Shown here: positions 40,358-51,783 of the stretch, one piece after another
Layout of the letters: each line of letters begins with the position of its first letter
Position numbering within the stretch: position 1 is the first letter of the stretch
NCBI GenBank assembly: GCA_947631745.1
Contig: CANRMM010000001.1
Coordinates: 1,367 to 65,366, forward strand
Direction: 5' to 3'
Origin: an uncultured Clostridia bacterium
GTDB taxonomy: Bacteria; Bacillota; Clostridia; TANB77; CAG-508
Length of the DNA stretch: 64,000 nucleotides
Notes under the pieces: generated by a model
Database searches by the model: none
The model's input: only the letters and a program-made list of their open reading frames with translations
What the model was told of the DNA's origin: nothing
Translations under genes and position numbers: made by a program

Positions 40358-40536
40358 TAGTTTTTCCCCTTTTACAAGATAGAAGAGTGGAACTTGTTTC
40401 CACTCTTCTACGTTAATTATTATGCAGTATTATTATACTGCAATATTTTACCAATTGCAAGTATTTTTATGTATTTTCTTTATTTTTACCTTTTCTTTAT
40501 ATATTTATACCTACTGGATTTTACATATCAGTATTT

Positions 40537-41304
40537 TTAATACTCATTATCATGTAGCATCGTTCCATTTGCATAGAAATTATCTAAATCTTCTACATCT
40601 ATTGTATATAAATCTGTTGGCTCACTATTTAAGTTTATATCGATACTTTCTATCTCTTTCCATCCTTCTTCTGTCTTTACTACATCATCATTTTCTAAAT
40701 ATTCATATCCTTCATACCTTGATAATGACTTCCAGCCTTCTTTTGTATATATTGGATGATACATATTTTGTACTAATGTACTTCCGTCTTTAAATTTAAT
40801 TGTCACAATATCTGTTGCATCTTCATGTATATATGTTCCTGTTACTTTTCTTAGTTCATTTCTTTCTGTTTCTTCGTTGTATGCTACTACTGTATCTCCT
40901 ATTTTTAAATCTTCTATTGCTTTTATATGTCCTTCTACGTCTATTAATACTTGTGAACCTGCTACAATACATTTATTGTGTACTAATATACTATCTAATC
41001 CTACAAAGTAGTCGTGATTATCCTCTACTATCAAATTATATACTTTTATTGTTTCATTGTTTTCTATTCTTTCTATCTTAGTTATCTTCTGTTCTACATT
41101 ATTACTATTAATTAATATATCTCCTACTTTCAAATTACCTGCTTCTGTCCATCCTTTACTCATTACATAAAATGGATGATTTGGTGTTACTTCTACATCT
41201 GCATTTTCTGTATATATTTTTAATAGATTTCCGCTATAATTATGAACTAAAGTTTTTAATACTTCTTTTACTTCTATTTCACGTGTGTCATTAACTCCTC
41301 CTCA
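40537..41304 (-). pseudogene. Degenerate tandem Hint (Hedgehog/intein, BIL-like) domain cassette. TGA sits at the Cys1 position of the first Hint domain.
   Basis: Open frame after TGA (41302-41304): GGVNDTREIEV...TPNHPFYV...VYNLIVEDNHDYFVGLDSILVHN-K-CIVAGSQVLIDV...LYTIDVEDLDNFYANGTMLHDNEY-stop. The only in-frame ATG (41163) lacks an RBS. Confidence 0.6.
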
Positions 41305-41329
41305 AATAGTTCAAACCATGGCGAAATCT

Positions 41330-41428
41330 AAAAATATCACCTGATACAACTTCTCTTTCATAATATAGCTGTCAATCTATAGCAAAATTTAAAAATATCA
41401 CCTGATACAACTTCTCTTTCATAATATA
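41330..41428 (-). repeat. Two 38-bp perfect direct repeats (41330-41367 and 41391-41428) straddling the stop codon of ORF 41358..43232.
   Basis: aaaaatatcacctgatacaacttctctttcataatata occurs twice. Copy 1 encodes YYEREVVSGDIF in the ORF frame; copy 2 is in a shifted frame. Confidence 0.6.
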
Positions 41429-43232
41429 ATTCTTCGTTGTCTGCTGACCAAGTTAATCCTTCCCAATCGCATTCATAATAATAACCTCTACCAAAATTAA
41501 CCGACGTTCTTTCTTGTGTAGTCACTTTAACACTTCTAGCATTCAAAGGAACACTAATCTTCTTACTTTCTGGTTCAGAGCTCCAATTAAATGCTCCAGG
41601 TGTAAAAGGAATTGATATTGTTTCACTCGATAATTCACTTCCATCACCATCATACCAAGTCACTAAATATTCAAATGGAGCATAAACAACACTATCCCAG
41701 TCATTATTGTCTTCGGCCCAAAGTCCCCTCGCCAAACCATTCAAAACCTCGCTATACTCACCTTTAATTGGAAACCCTCCATCCCAGGTTCTACGCAATT
41801 CATATTTTTCTCTATATTCTGGACTACACTGTTTCGACCATTTTTCAGCCAAAGGATCGTAAACACTTTTGTAATACAAATCCTCACAAAATGCTTCCAT
41901 AACGAGCGACATCAGCTCGTCACCGGCGTCAGCCCCCTCCTCGATTACATCCATAATATCATAGTATAGTTTGAAATCATGGTAATAATATGCATTATTC
42001 ATACATTTTTGAATGTAATCCTTGGTAAATAATTCGGAATCACCACCATAAGTTACAGTCGTAGCATCTTTAAGGCACGAAACCACATAAGCACTAAAAT
42101 CACCATTGAAATGTTCATTAATAAAATCCTGTTCATGCGAAGAGACGTAATCGTCGACCAAACCTTCCCAACCATCACAGTACTCCCAGTCCAAGTTTAT
42201 TAAATAGTCATCCAAAATAACTTCTCTTTCTATTATAATATATGGCGTTACATCTGCTTCTACCTCCGGTAATTTTTCTCCTTTTGGTATTACTGGTTTT
42301 GGAGTTCCTGTTAACTCTCCTATTCTATTTATTATTATTTCCTTTGCTTCTACATCTCCTTGTGTTACTGTGTATGTATATTCTATTGTTGCTGTTCCGT
42401 TTGGCTCTAATGAATCTATAATAAATTCTCCGTTCTTGCAACTTACCCCTTCACTCATACTTGATACTTTTATTTCTTCATCTCCTGGAAAATATGTTCC
42501 ACTTCCTGCTGTTAGCGTATCTGGTATATGAATATTCTTCATTGTTACTTTGCCTGTATTTTTTACCGTTATTGTCCATTCTATTTCTTCATTCGCTATA
42601 TAATATTCTCCATTTTTTGGAGTTGATGTTACCTCTTTTGTTATCTCAAAATTTGAATTGTCATTTTCTACTATGTTCTTTATTCCATCTACTAATATTC
42701 CTAATTCTCTATTTTCTCTTGTATCTTTTCCATAATACATTACTCTATATGTTTTGCCTTCATCTGTTTCTGCTAACTTTATTGTTTCTTCTGTTTTTGC
42801 TACCTTTGTTATACTTCCTGTCCCTGGTGCTACTTCTTCTAATTTATATACATCTGTACTTCCTTCTCCATTTCCTAATGCTAGCCTTGTTCCTGCTAAT
42901 GTTTCAACATTTATTTTATATACTCCATCTGTTCCTATATCTTCAACTATTCCTCTATCTTGCAAATAATCTATTAAACTTGTTTCCTCTTTTCCAACCC
43001 TTCCTGCCCAGTAATCCGAATATGCCATCTGTATCCTTTCCCACACTGTTGCATGAGTATGCTCTACTTTCCCTCTATCTGCACTTGAAATTAATCCATT
43101 CTCTCCAAATACTGCATTAATACTTATTACTGCCAAAATAATTAATATTACTATTGTTACCACTAATGCTATTAGTGTTATTCCTTTATGCTGTTTCAGC
43201 ACTCCTTTTATTTTCCCTGTTCTTTCTTTCAT
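41358..43232 (-). CDS. Secreted protein with prepilin-like N-terminus, conserved paralogous domain, DUF11-like repeat and a compositionally foreign C-terminal module.
   Basis: 624 aa. KG|ITLIALVVTIVILIILAVISINAVFG. About 160 aa shared with ORF 46127..47371 (about 90% nucleotide identity at the 5' end). TITVKNTGKVTMKNIHIPDTL is a DUF11-like motif. Confidence 0.6.
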   Translation of the reverse strand: MKERTGKIKGVLKQHKGITLIALVVTIVILIILAVISINAVFGENGLISSADRGKVEHTHATVWERIQMAYSDYWAGRVGKEETSLIDYLQDRGIVEDIGTDGVYKINVETLAGTRLALGNGEGSTDVYKLEEVAPGTGSITKVAKTEETIKLAETDEGKTYRVMYYGKDTRENRELGILVDGIKNIVENDNSNFEITKEVTSTPKNGEYYIANEEIEWTITVKNTGKVTMKNIHIPDTLTAGSGTYFPGDEEIKVSSMSEGVSCKNGEFIIDSLEPNGTATIEYTYTVTQGDVEAKEIIINRIGELTGTPKPVIPKGEKLPEVEADVTPYIIIEREVILDDYLINLDWEYCDGWEGLVDDYVSSHEQDFINEHFNGDFSAYVVSCLKDATTVTYGGDSELFTKDYIQKCMNNAYYYHDFKLYYDIMDVIEEGADAGDELMSLVMEAFCEDLYYKSVYDPLAEKWSKQCSPEYREKYELRRTWDGGFPIKGEYSEVLNGLARGLWAEDNNDWDSVVYAPFEYLVTWYDGDGSELSSETISIPFTPGAFNWSSEPESKKISVPLNARSVKVTTQERTSVNFGRGYYYECDWEGLTWSADNEELYYEREVVSGDIFKFCYRLTAIL

Positions 43233-43239
43233 TTATTTT

Positions 43240-43385
43240 CCCCTTTTCTTTTATATTCTTAGTTTTCTAAGTATAACCTATTTAAGTCTACTTATTTAAT
43301 TTTATTCCTTTAAGTCTGTCCCTCAGGTGACAAAAGTGTCACAAATAGGAACGTCCCCCAAGTGACAAAGTAACAAAAATGACAG
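43240..43385 (+). repeat. REP-like repeat, copy 2 (about 145 bp, with an internal tttaagtct duplication).
   Basis: See 32881..33000. Lies between the start of ORF 41358..43232 and mutS2. Confidence 0.6.
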
Positions 43386-43461
43386 GCTACCAAAAATAGT
43401 CTGTCATTGAATATACTAAACAAAAGGCTTTATTGTCCCTTCTTATTTCCATAAAATTACT

Positions 43462-43486
43462 TGTGTGTGTGTGTGTGTGTGTGTGT
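43462..43486. repeat. (TG)12 dinucleotide microsatellite.
   Basis: tgtgtgtgtgtgtgtgtgtgtgtgt, read directly. Intergenic, between divergent genes. Confidence 0.85.
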
Positions 43487-43734
43487 ACTCTCGCAATGGT
43501 TTCAGGTTTTGCCATTTTTTATTATTCCTCTTTCTTTCGTTTATACTTATTTTATACCAATAATATTAACTTTTGTCAACATTGAAATTTATAATATTTT
43601 TTACCCCTGTATACAAGATAATCCTTCTTTTCTTTACAACACTAAAAAGAATACCTTATTAAAATTATGACATTTTCAACAATATTACTATAAAATATGT
43701 TATAATAATATCATTATTTATTTTGGAGGATGTT

Positions 43735-46126: not shown

Positions 46127-47371
46127 TTATTCAGTCCATATTAAAGGATCTTCCTTTGTTCCCTCTCCTTGTACTCTATCAATAGCTGTTGGATTAACTA
46201 TAAAAATTGGTCTTAACTTATTCGTAGCCACATTGCTTCTATAAAAATTTTTATAATAAAAATTTGAATATATACTAAAGCCAGCAATCGTCTCCGGATT
46301 ATAGGTTCTACTTAGAAAATATTCAAGGCCATAATATTCACCTGCACCAGACGTCTTTTGTGCTCTAGAAGACACCCAATAATTTGATTTACTAGTTGTA
46401 TCGAAAATATCAACTCCCAATGATTTCATATTTTGCATCTGTAAAAAATCAATATTAGAATTGCTATCTACATCTTTAATCATTGTATCACCAACTGTCC
46501 ACTTTCCTGAAGTTGCTTTTTCTGCTAAATTTACTAAATCTTTTGATTCAGAATATGGATCATTTGGCACACTTCCTACACATCTTGCACTAGTTACATA
46601 CATATTATTACTTTCATTTACATATTTTTTTGCCTCATTATTCAATGTTTCTATAGCACTATTATATGATTCTACTGCTAATTGCATTTGTTCTGAAGTT
46701 CCACCCTGAGTTAAATCACAATCATTTCCAATCCCAATGTTTTCTCCTACTACATCTGTTGCTATCATTTGTATTCCATAATTAGTTTTATTTGTTTTAT
46801 TATATTCTTCGTCATACATTACTACGCACTCTATTGTTGTACCATTATATGGCAATTGCACATATTTTCCTACTTTGAATTCACTTGCAGTTTGAGGCAA
46901 ATCTTTTTTCTTATCTCCTTCTAGCACTCCCAAGTTTCTAGGTCCACTTTCTCCATAATAATTTACACTATATGTCTTATCTCCATTTGCTTCTACGGTT
47001 TCTTCTAATTTATATACATCATTTTGGTCATCTGTTCCATTTCCTAATGCTAACTTTGCTCCTGCTAATGCTACTGTGTTTATTTTATATCCTCCATTAC
47101 TGGTCTGTTCTGTTCCTATTATTTCTTTTTCTTGTAAATATGATATTAAATCTTTTTTCTCATTTGCTACTTTCCCTGCCCAGTAATCTGAGTATGCCAT
47201 CTCCATTCTTTCCCATACTGTTGCATGTGTATATTCTACTTCTCCTTTTTCTGTACTTGAAATTAACCCATTTTCTCCAAACACCGCATTAATACTTATT
47301 ACTGCCAAAATTATTAATATCACTATTGTTACAACTAATGCTACTAAGGTTATTCCTTTTTCTCTTTTCAT
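46127..47371 (-). CDS. Secreted protein with prepilin-like N-terminus, paralog of 41358..43232 with an unrelated C-terminal region.
   Basis: 414 aa. MKREKG|ITLVALVVTIVILIILAVISINAVFGENGLISS... RBS AGGAGGA immediately downstream of ppiB. Confidence 0.6.
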   Translation of the reverse strand: MKREKGITLVALVVTIVILIILAVISINAVFGENGLISSTEKGEVEYTHATVWERMEMAYSDYWAGKVANEKKDLISYLQEKEIIGTEQTSNGGYKINTVALAGAKLALGNGTDDQNDVYKLEETVEANGDKTYSVNYYGESGPRNLGVLEGDKKKDLPQTASEFKVGKYVQLPYNGTTIECVVMYDEEYNKTNKTNYGIQMIATDVVGENIGIGNDCDLTQGGTSEQMQLAVESYNSAIETLNNEAKKYVNESNNMYVTSARCVGSVPNDPYSESKDLVNLAEKATSGKWTVGDTMIKDVDSNSNIDFLQMQNMKSLGVDIFDTTSKSNYWVSSRAQKTSGAGEYYGLEYFLSRTYNPETIAGFSIYSNFYYKNFYRSNVATNKLRPIFIVNPTAIDRVQGEGTKEDPLIWTE

Positions 47372-50702: not shown

Positions 50703-51783
50703 TTGTCACTTTGTCACTTTGGGGACGTTCCTTTTTGTGACACTTTTGTCACTTGTGGGACACTCCTTCATTCTTTAGATATCGCTCTATATATCATCCT
50801 TTTATTAATACCTAAAATTCTAGCTAGTTGTTCTCTATAAATGCCATCTATTTTACTAGCCTCTTTAATAATTTTATCCCTATACTCTGGCTTGTACCTT
50901 TGTATACTTAGTAAATTATCTATATGTAATTTTCTTCTAATTTCTACTATTGCTTCTTCATCATTTAGTCTAGTTATATTTTCAAATTCTTTTTCATCAT
51001 ATTGTTCTTCAATATTACTCATATTATAGTTTTTCCATAGTTCGATTGCTCTTTGCCTATCCAAACTAAAAATAGATAAAATAAATTCAATATCTGTGAT
51101 TTTTTTATTTCCTACATATTCCTGATAACTGCTCCATTGATATGAACTCATTTCACCTATCCCATCTTTTTGAGGATTTCGATGAATATATCTCTGTACA
51201 TTTAACAAGTAGCTCTCACTTTCAACACTTTTGCTATTAAATCTATTAAAAAAAAGATGACCAATCCTATCATATTTTTTATTAAAATATACTGCATAAG
51301 ACGTCGCTAAGCTTTGCATAATTTTAGAAAGCATATTTTCATTATCTTTTATGAGCATATGAACATGATTACCCATTAAAACATAAGCATATAATTGATA
51401 TTTATATTTATCTTTTGTATCTATAATTTTTTCTATAAACTTTTCTCTATCGTCATTATCAAAAAATATTTCTTGACTATTAATTCCTCTGATAATAACA
51501 TGATACACATTTGTAAAAGATTTTTTACTTTTTCTTGAACTACGAGGCATTATACCACCTTTCCTTTCTTTAAGGTTGAATGCCCCCGTATTCAACTTTT
51601 ACATAAATAAAAATATAGCATAAATTTCACAATCATGCTATATTTTTCACAAAATTTATATATATATTTCAAATATATTTCAAATTTTATAATTAATATT
51701 ATTAAGAGTGTCCCCAAAGTGACAGTTTTGTCACTAAAAAGAACGTCCCCAAAGTGACAAAGTGACAACTAAAGTGACAAAAG
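50703..51783 (-). mobile_element. IS200/RAYT-like unit: Y1 HUH transposase gene flanked by inverted copies of the REP-like repeat.
   Basis: Repeat copy 3 (50703-50766, reverse) and copy 4 (51706-51783, forward) bracket ORF 50768..51550. Confidence 0.6.
50768..51550 (-). CDS. Y1 HUH transposase, IS200/IS605-TnpA / REP-associated tyrosine transposase-like, with a C-terminal HTH extension.
   Basis: NVYHVIIRG..., HUH motif GNHVHMLI, catalytic-Tyr motif RYIHRNP. Start taken at MPRSSRK (ATG 51550) after GGAAAGGTGG. Confidence 0.7.
   Translation of the reverse strand: MPRSSRKSKKSFTNVYHVIIRGINSQEIFFDNDDREKFIEKIIDTKDKYKYQLYAYVLMGNHVHMLIKDNENMLSKIMQSLATSYAVYFNKKYDRIGHLFFNRFNSKSVESESYLLNVQRYIHRNPQKDGIGEMSSYQWSSYQEYVGNKKITDIEFILSIFSLDRQRAIELWKNYNMSNIEEQYDEKEFENITRLNDEEAIVEIRRKLHIDNLLSIQRYKPEYRDKIIKEASKIDGIYREQLARILGINKRMIYRAISKE

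Follow-up and report, generated by a model that had tools for sequence, protein, structure and literature searches.

The A-type bacterial intein-like (BIL) domains of the Hint superfamily are said to go back to Amitai et al. in 2003 and Dassa et al. in 2004. They sit in variable, non-conserved secreted or surface proteins of bacteria, not in housekeeping genes, and undergo cleavage at their ends (PMC7765530). At the polyubiquitin-like BUBL1 locus of Tetrahymena thermophila, the domain BIL2 makes the C-terminal end of its N-extein reactive and passes it on to a lysine, so that an isopeptide bond arises without ATP (PMC8616854). Here, we describe a locus in a 64,000-nucleotide stretch of an uncultured Clostridia bacterium (contig CANRMM010000001.1 of GenBank assembly GCA_947631745.1; the whole stretch is called the window), in which a fragment encoding two consecutive Hint domains, Hint 1 and Hint 2, lies downstream of an open reading frame (ORF) for a putative surface protein. 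Hint 1 has lost its start, and the fragment (40537-41301) is probably all that is left, at a replacement hot spot, of the 3' end of a former surface-protein gene with terminal Hint domains.

Hint 1 of the window resembles the A-type BILs in its block B TxxH, its C-terminal His-Asn and the variable surface-protein family that hosts it. It differs in having neither Cys1 nor block A and, across the family, Hint 1 precedes a second Hint of another subtype and not a C-terminal protein segment. For Hint 2, the BUBL1 BIL2 domain (6Y75/6TMM) is the best match in both sequence and structure and offers a precedent for a terminal Hint with little or no C-extein, although the host here is bacterial, the identity is only 24%, and the terminal His-Asn, HDN in the window, is absent from the relatives P0003-P0007 described below. 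No ubiquitin-like domain was detected by Pfam in the window fragment, in the locus of its closest relative (L001) or in the relative P0005.

A Hint-Hint frame without the start of Hint 1

A frame of 254 codons is open on the minus strand from 41301 to 40540, closed by the stop at 40537-40539, with zero internal stops. It is not open by chance, since across this stretch one of the remaining frames of the strand has 31 stops and the other 46, and the genome is 30% G+C. A first-pass annotation, made by reading the sequence alone, had recognized two consecutive Hint-superfamily domains here and proposed a check against PF07591, and this identification is borne out: PT-HINT (PF07591) is the best Pfam model for both domains, aligns in two stretches and passes its curated threshold with 91.7 bits against a cut-off of 27.7 (E=6.1e-26). 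The frame is also matched by Intein_splicing (1.6e-17) and, over residues 111-192, by Vint (1.9e-7).

Block B, blocks F/G and every motif claimed for the second domain were found at the positions first given for them. In Hint 1, block B reads TPNHPF (41170-41187) and contains TxxH as TPNH; blocks F/G (VYNLIVEDNHDYFVG...ILVHN) are kept and end at 40975. Hint 2 opens with its Cys1 (TGT, 40969-40971) in the motif CIVAGSQV from 40971; its block B, NMYHPIYT (40744-40767), keeps the His and has Asn in place of Thr (NMYH), and its C-terminal motif NFYANGTMLHDN reaches 40546. Nucleophile and block A are both present in Hint 2 and both missing from Hint 1.

The earlier reading of the start of Hint 1 did not hold. 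It had taken GGVNDTREIEV for block A and the TGA at 41302-41304 for a codon occupying the Cys1 position. Three independent alignments place the break further into the domain, past the first ~30 residues, which comprise Cys1, block A and three beta-strands. In Pfam, residues 6-109 of the frame align to PT-HINT positions 27-136 of 137, with positions 1-26 unmatched. In NCBIfam, residues 4-46 correspond to positions 41-83 of the 83 of intein_Nterm, whereas the match of the intact P0005 extends over 1-82. When the frame is aligned with six intact relatives, NDTREIEV stands opposite N(E/Q)(K/E)TNEIE, 30 residues past Cys1, and the relatives' segment CFxxGTKV(L/I)TPxGxxNIExxKxGDxVYTR has no window counterpart. 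In tblastn with the N-terminal Hint 1 segments of three relatives, homology begins at 41292 going downward, and no trace of the block A/Cys1 segment was found in any upstream frame. A DNA alignment with the contig of the closest relative did not recover the missing start either. The lost part corresponds to strands 63-66, 69-72 and 81-86 in the AlphaFold 2 (AF2) model of P0005 (mean pLDDT 79). Cys1 and block A have thus been deleted, not mutated, and the TGA at 41302-41304 lies ~27-30 positions past the expected Cys1, inside a segment without homology.

Intact relatives and two Hint subtypes

Relatives of the fragment were obtained from a search of 5.8 billion protein clusters. The six intact ones (P0002-P0007; 334-365 residues, 48-74% identical across 96-99% of the fragment) share one order: an N-terminal membrane anchor or a larger passenger, Hint 1 (CF.xGT.V...), a single K or C, and Hint 2, with the stop 0-3 residues past Hint 2 in all six. 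The first-pass annotation had remarked that no toxin domain follows Hint 2. Only Glu-Tyr follows; this is the native architecture and not decay, because all six intact relatives end likewise. Its polymorphic-toxin framing finds no support either: the relatives end after Hint 2, and the next gene is rimP. Nor does the label ‘degenerate’ fit, since it overstates the damage: at sites conserved among the outgroup P0003-P0007, the window fragment carries 10 derived amino-acid changes and the intact P0002 carries 8. Without excess changes or an internal stop, the fragment was either truncated recently or has been protected.

Sequence and structural comparisons place the two domains apart. Hint 1 of P0005 matches the Clostridium thermocellum BIL structure 2LWY (phmmer E=1.2e-18; Foldseek target-normalised TM 0.91), and Hint 2 of P0005 (residues 201-332) matches 6Y75/6TMM (phmmer E about 1e-7). 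Chains of 6Y75/6TMM are also the top Foldseek matches of the two-domain AF2 model of P0005 (target-normalised TM 0.84-0.88, root-mean-square deviation 1.6-1.7 A), which matches a long series of inteins as well and, more weakly, the Hedgehog Hint structures 6TYY and 1AT0 (E about 5e-5 to 8e-5). The subtypes thus differ, Hint 1 being an A-type BIL and Hint 2 BIL2-like. The last residues of Hint 2 are an atypical HDN both in the window and in P0002; P0003-P0007 have no terminal Asn at all, so that only the N-terminal thioester step would be available to their Hint 2.

In the closest relative, P0002 on L001, the module is joined to a large passenger whose homologues are the C-terminal parts of P0180 and P0175, two proteins with the KGITL(I/V)AL-type N-terminus described in the next section. 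An apparent frameshift at L001:580-730, on a contig of 2.7x coverage, splits this passenger-Hint-Hint gene into two called genes and is a probable sequencing error. The passengers of L001 and of L098 (below) were labelled FGE-sulfatase-like by eye, a label that Pfam does not confirm, and only family homology is claimed for them.

Many environmental proteins end in ...LVHNK immediately before the stop (P0021, P0022, P0025, P0028, P0036, P0037, P0040, P0042, P0044, P0050, P0061 and P0063 among them). They have a Hint followed by a single Lys; the window has the same VHN-K, and then Hint 2. Several of them carry two tandem Hint domains in other orders. A search of viral contigs for an association with phages gave only three weak matches, and a scan of JGI metagenomes one uninformative locus.

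A polymorphic surface-protein family with terminal Hint domains

The 624-residue ORF upstream of the fragment (41358-43232) begins with a segment that resembles a pilin N-terminus. The Pfam N_methyl model scores 14.3 bits there, below its cut-off of 21.2. Its 289 homologues match only the N-terminal 50-67%, and the start was inspected in 120 of them (P0064-P0183): 111 of these 120 carry a near-invariant KGITL(I/V)AL(V/I)xTI(V/I)(I/V)L..ILA...GENG(L/I), always with Ala in place of the canonical pilin Glu at +5 (111/111). ‘Pilin-like’ denotes resemblance only, because N_methyl stays below threshold and position +5 is Ala. The passengers that follow are very diverse (leucine-rich repeat, FN3, DUF11, SpaA, Cna_B and FGE-sulfatase), and past PKGEKLPEVE the similarity of paralogues breaks off abruptly, each continuing with an unrelated C-terminal domain. 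For the last 305 residues of the ORF, a search of 1.84 billion representative proteins gave no homologue, and this part is an orphan in both protein collections; blastx of 41200-42400 revealed no homology in an alternative frame. Together, these proteins make up a large polymorphic family of surface proteins whose C-terminal parts are swapped and whose class III-like signal is unusual.

Hint modules occur at the other end of the same family. With Hint profiles of our own, at least 11 proteins with the KGITL(I/V)AL N-terminus were found to close with a Hint 2-type domain that leaves only 2-3 residues up to the stop. P0088, P0089, P0100 and P0103 combine this ending with an N-terminus homologous to that of ORF 41358-43232, and P0008 and P0140 combine the KGITL(I/V)AL N-terminus with Hint 1. 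Judged by these architectures, Hint modules are one of the recurrent endings of the family. Upstream of the module, intact members have a pilin-like anchor with a variable passenger or a membrane anchor alone. The architecture to which the relic points is a heterotypic tandem, with an A-type BIL before a BIL2-like domain, placed at the extreme C-terminus of polymorphic surface proteins with a pilin-like anchor, without a C-extein; nothing relevant to such a tandem or terminal Hint architecture was found in the literature searched.

The terminal Hint 2-type domains of P0010, P0013-P0020, P0023, P0026, P0088, P0089, P0100 and P0103 end in ...(Y/F)ANGTLVQ(G/S)SY directly before the stop and match Hint 2 of the window at E about 1e-23. 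They carry no Pfam Hint annotation, either in precomputed matches or in our own scan of P0013, and represent a blind spot of current domain models.

The insertion between mutS2 and rimP

The ORF, the duplication described below and the Hint fragment lie together in a lineage-specific insertion (Table 1) among housekeeping genes, with rimP-nusA-infB on one side and mutS2, a cyclophilin gene, disA and radA on the other. In the related loci L097 (NusA 94% identical) and L099 (88%), mutS2 and rimP are ~250 bp apart with nothing between them, and homology of the flanks to the window stops at about 40468-40487 and about 43691-43721. No Hint sequence was found in L097-L099 by tblastn. The stop of Hint 2 is only ~65 nt from the edge of the insertion, as expected if Hint-Hint were the natural 3' end of the inserted gene.

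In L098 (NusA 92%), the sequence directly before the rimP promoter (L098:2-385) belongs to another family member, whose C-terminal domain matches P0148 and P0145 (E about 3e-19), so that the mutS2-rimP site is a hot spot for genes of this family. An unrelated Clostridia metagenome-assembled genome offers a parallel at L013:7761-9624, where an anchor-Hint 1-Hint 2 gene (66% identical to P0005) is cut inside Hint 2 (...ITIKK, then the stop), and a pilin-like leucine-rich-repeat gene begins 2 nt past the stop of the broken gene. Evidently, the genes of this large polymorphic surface-protein family of uncultured gut Clostridia recombine and replace each other often, with the region between mutS2 and rimP as a replacement hot spot.

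Table 1. Features of the insertion and of the Hint-Hint fragment (window coordinates)
Feature	Position	Strand	Basis
Lineage-specific insertion, ~3.2 kb, between the rimP promoter and the mutS2 start; holds ORF, duplication and Hint relic	about 40471-43690		Empty orthologous loci
Glu-Tyr (EY) tail after Hint 2 and TAA stop (40537-40539)	40537-40545	-	Sequence; P0002 ends ...LHDNDY and P0003-P0007 end ...NGTLMKGY before the stop
Hint 2, complete, BIL2/Vint-like subtype	40546-40971	-	Pfam Vint and Hint matches, residues 110-192; own hidden Markov model h2, positions 1-141 of 142
One Lys codon, linking Hint 1 (...VHN) to Cys1 of Hint 2	40972-40974	-	Relatives: K or C
Hint 1 remnant, A-type BIL	40975-41292	-	Pfam, intein_Nterm, alignment of relatives, tblastn
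First in-frame ATG (41161-41163), start of the 208-residue P0001	41149-41163	-	Without Shine-Dalgarno
Junction without homology to Hint relatives, holds TGA 41302-41304	41293-41310	-	18 nt
Duplication copy 2; TGA stop of the ORF (41358-41360) in its first bases	41311-41367	-	Repeat search
624-residue ORF	41358-43232	-	Pfam; homologues cover the N-terminal part only
Orphan C-terminal region of the ORF, ~300 residues	about 41361-42251	-	No homologue
Duplication copy 1; encodes the ORF C-terminus ...LYYEREVVSGDIFKFCYRL, with Cys617 = TGC 41382-41384	41372-41428	-	Repeat search
DUF11/DUF7507 (‘CLIPPER’) Ig-like domain of the ORF, residues 194-299	42336-42653	-	Pfam
Pilin-like N-terminal anchor of the ORF, residues 13-37	43122-43196	-	Resemblance only

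A second family gene lies at 46127-47371 of the window (P0086, 414 residues, no Pfam domain), 52% identical to the N-terminal third of the ORF. It is a lineage-specific insertion too: the cyclophilin gene and mutS2 are adjacent in L097 and L099. A gene for an IS200-like Y1 transposase (50768-51595, 275 residues, one of just two long ORFs that end in TGA) is found between a GH15 gene and radA; L099 has it at the corresponding place, and L097 does not have it.

The junction and its tandem duplication

ORF and fragment meet in an imperfect tandem duplication of 57 nt, with 91% identity and a period of 61 nt. Copy 1 is read in frame by the ORF; copy 2 is entered one base out of phase and immediately yields the TGA at 41358-41360. 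The copies share an exact 37-nt core, which was found at no further place in the window and in none of 98 other loci. The five mismatches between the copies (A/G, T/C, T/C, A/G, A/T) all fall in the last 18 of the 57 positions, for which the probability under an even spread is C(18,5)/C(57,5), about 0.002 by our own count. The clustering suggests that two diverged parents recombined or that gene conversion made the copies of an old duplication partly alike. Across 12.6 kb that include the junction, an independent assembly of a different sample (L002) agrees at 99.97% identity, and a (CA)n tract is the sole difference.

Some features of the ORF end recall the missing Hint 1 start. From Cys617 down to the first conserved Hint codon the distance is 92 nt, against an expected 90, and by eye the ORF end CYRLTAIL resembles the Hint 1 start CFxxGTxVL, a resemblance that is not significant in BLAST and is a hint only. 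Three further ideas were rejected. A third degenerate copy of the 61-nt unit was unsupported by alignment or TRF. A diversity-generating retroelement does not account for the repeat pair, its mismatches not being adenine-specific and no reverse transcriptase lying nearby. The ORF segments WEYCDGWEGL and YECDWEGL...YYEREVVSG, taken by eye for the pre-Hint adaptor of the relatives (GMTWEEW...YY.VSG), scored below shuffled sequences against its profile.

An AGGAGG followed 5 nt on by an ATG (41291-41300) opens a five-codon mini-ORF, MTHVK and a stop, out of frame with the Hint relic; it is probably fortuitous.

Origin of the fragment

The reading that we consider likely is that 40537-41301 is what remains of the 3' end of an earlier surface-protein gene. 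We infer the order of events as follows. Members of the polymorphic family would have been inserted and replaced at the mutS2-rimP site, among them a gene for a surface protein ending in an A-type BIL Hint 1, one residue, a BIL2/Vint-like Hint 2 and the stop. A rearrangement would then have removed ~30 first codons of Hint 1 together with the in-frame link to the upstream coding region, leaving the junction with the imperfect 61-nt duplication of the present ORF 3' end, in whose second copy the ORF stops. The similar counts of derived changes suggest that the truncation is recent; that the fragment was otherwise protected is the competing account. As it stands, the relic appears to be non-functional, because Hint 1 has no nucleophile or block A and its fold is incomplete, and the fragment has no usable start, promoter, signal or anchor. 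The first-pass annotation had spoken of a decayed, displaced C-terminal cassette of the upstream gene. Its displacement is upheld by the broken Hint-Hint pair behind a surface-protein gene, by the module being a C-terminal one of the family and by the 57-nt, 91% repeat; the Cys1 mutation, the decay and the toxin role fall away.

Whether the relic was the C-terminus of the same gene lineage as the present ORF, or belonged to an independent small anchor-Hint-Hint gene that lost its head when the ORF arrived, is a closer matter, with the former somewhat more likely. We lean to the same-gene tail because the closest relatives are of the fused type, because the ORF has a beta-strand-like end, ...GDIFKF-Cys, similar to the junctions before Hint in the relatives, and because the repeat ties both parts together. 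These three points are suggestive only, as two statistical tests of them (BLAST and the adaptor profile) failed.

Several observations weigh against this account of a stranded 3' end. The clustering of the mismatches is unexplained by simple recent slippage. Dropping one 61-nt copy restores no Hint 1 frame, the single-copy frame ending ...LNYLRRS one base off. The profile of the relatives' pre-Hint adaptor (LITFTI...GMTWEEW...) scores -2.2 bits on the ORF, with shuffles reaching up to 9. No intact single gene spanning 40537-43232 (ORF-Hint-Hint) was found, and no relative carries the C-terminal 305 residues of the ORF. The 254 undamaged codons could also mean that the fragment is kept for a reason. 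Finally, the chemistry proposed for the intact module rests on analogy, and Hint 2 ends in the atypical HDN.

Being kept for a reason is the core of one competing explanation, in which the fragment serves as a silent reserve cassette, comparable to pilS copies or to orphan modules of the CdiA-CT/Rhs kind, and recombination through the repeat swaps Hint-Hint onto the surface protein. The direct repeat (37 nt exact, 57 nt at 91%) between the ORF 3' end and the sequence just upstream of the relic would suit such a role, as would the 254 intact codons without excess change, the family's C-termini swapped past PKGEKLPEVE and the length-variable (CA)n tract upstream of the ORF. Yet recombination between the copies merely deletes 61 nt and restores neither the frame nor Cys1 nor block A; there is one cassette and no array, the independent assembly has the same arrangement, and no recombinase lies nearby among the housekeeping neighbours. 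We regard a reserve cassette as unlikely. It seems very unlikely that the 208-residue ORF from the ATG at 41163 (P0001), reported by gene callers, is expressed alone as half a Hint plus Hint 2 in a new role. No Shine-Dalgarno was found upstream of this ATG, in agreement with the first-pass annotation; unlike every intact relative, the product has no signal or anchor, its N-terminal 63 residues are a predicted unfoldable third of Hint 1, and where this ATG stands, the intact relatives have an internal K or E. These points stand against its being called as a gene on five contigs and its complete Hint 2 with Cys1 and block B His. The annotation is thereby corrected: the 208-residue ‘gene’ is a beheaded fragment, and nothing indicates selenocysteine or a toxin.

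An assembly artefact, with duplication and truncation produced by short-read mis-assembly across paralogous surface-protein genes, might be suspected from the metagenomic source, the many paralogues and the low contig coverage of about 6.5x. We consider it highly improbable, since the assembly from the other sample is identical through the junction, microsatellite apart, the copies differ at five positions, unlike a collapsed or expanded repeat, and the core sequence was found only here among all loci fetched. Almost no credence attaches to recoding, by which TGA as selenocysteine or another sense codon, or a programmed frameshift, would join the ORF and the Hint frame. The TGA is not aligned with Cys1 and block A is absent in every frame, which effectively refutes it; readthrough of the ORF's TGA meets another TGA, then TAG, within 10 codons, and the Hint frame itself has, besides the TGA at 41302-41304, a second one 9 nt upstream at 41311-41313. 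Rfam detected no selenocysteine insertion sequence (SECIS) or other recoding element in the window, a tRNA being the sole match, and the housekeeping ORFs are intact under table 11. What speaks for recoding is the rarity of TGA as a stop, ending 2 of the 35 long ORFs in the window, ORF 41358-43232 included, and the AGG AGG pair at the junction. Selenocysteine, for which the first-pass annotation had proposed a SECIS check, can on these grounds (misplaced TGA, second in-frame TGA, no Rfam element, intact housekeeping ORFs) be taken as excluded for practical purposes.

Relation to other described systems and possible role of the terminal module

Beyond the BIL domains, the stranded 3' end shares features with several known systems. 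Pretoxin HINT domains also occur in polymorphic secreted proteins with swapped C-terminal parts and displaced 3' fragments downstream. They differ in that neither the window nor the six relatives have a toxin after the Hint, the next gene being rimP with no immunity gene, and in that here the Hint module is the conserved end and the upstream passenger the variable part. Hedgehog/Hog proteins likewise place a passenger before a terminal Hint without a functional C-extein, and Hint 2 of P0003-P0007, left with the N-terminal thioester step, is comparable; here, there is no sterol-recognition region, the similarity is distant, and two Hints stand in tandem. As in CdiA/Rhs orphan modules, the fragment is a promoterless, 5'-truncated 3' piece, located downstream of the main gene and preceded by homology to the main gene's 3' end, as befits a displaced or orphan 3' cassette. 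It is, however, a processing module and not a toxin-immunity pair, it is present in a single copy, and recombination through the repeat regenerates no working gene. Canonical inteins occupy a conserved site of a conserved protein and have a +1 nucleophile for ligation. The hosts of the present domains are variable surface proteins; in addition, a Lys follows Hint 1 in the window and P0002, and Hint 2 has no C-extein.

In itself, the feature in the window is ordinary, being a gene remnant of known domain types. Its relatives are of wider concern: part of the family ends in intein-like domains with essentially no C-extein, sometimes with two subtypes back to back, and among characterised Hints the terminal domain is closest to one that attaches its N-extein to lysines. 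By analogy with characterised BIL domains, each Cys1 of an intact module would turn the preceding peptide bond into a thioester, after which the module would cut itself off or pass the passenger C-terminus to a nucleophile. Because the terminal domain resembles the lysine-conjugating BIL2, self-catalysed covalent attachment comes to mind. The relic might then mark undescribed Clostridia surface proteins in which a terminal Hint serves as a conjugation device independent of ATP and sortase. Such proteins would carry a swappable passenger between a non-canonical pilin-like anchor and a BIL module, single or tandem, at the end; the thioester at the passenger C-terminus would be ligated to a lysine or a cell-wall amine and thereby anchor, polymerise or cross-link the passenger. 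By our own estimate, this proposal is rather unlikely. If it were true, with the bacterial modules acting alike, it would amount to a self-contained covalent attachment of surface proteins.

Leader region of the surface-protein gene

A (CA)12 microsatellite (43462-43486) lies in the leader region of ORF 41358-43232 and is (CA)10 in the twin assembly L002. The tract is inside a 42-codon mini-ORF on the minus strand (43387-43515), which encodes (His-Thr)4 and is preceded by a good ribosome-binding site. This mini-ORF is positioned downstream of a promoter-like site, TTGACA-17-TATAAA (43579-43551), and ~230 nt upstream of the ATG of the surface-protein gene. As the 4-nt change shifts the frame of the mini-ORF, the (CA)n tract may switch the surface protein by phase variation through slipped-strand events. 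At 43330-43375, in the interval from the mini-ORF to the surface-protein gene, the motif TGTCAC/GTGACA is repeated (e.g. GTGACACTTTTGTCAC), and these repeats look like an operator.

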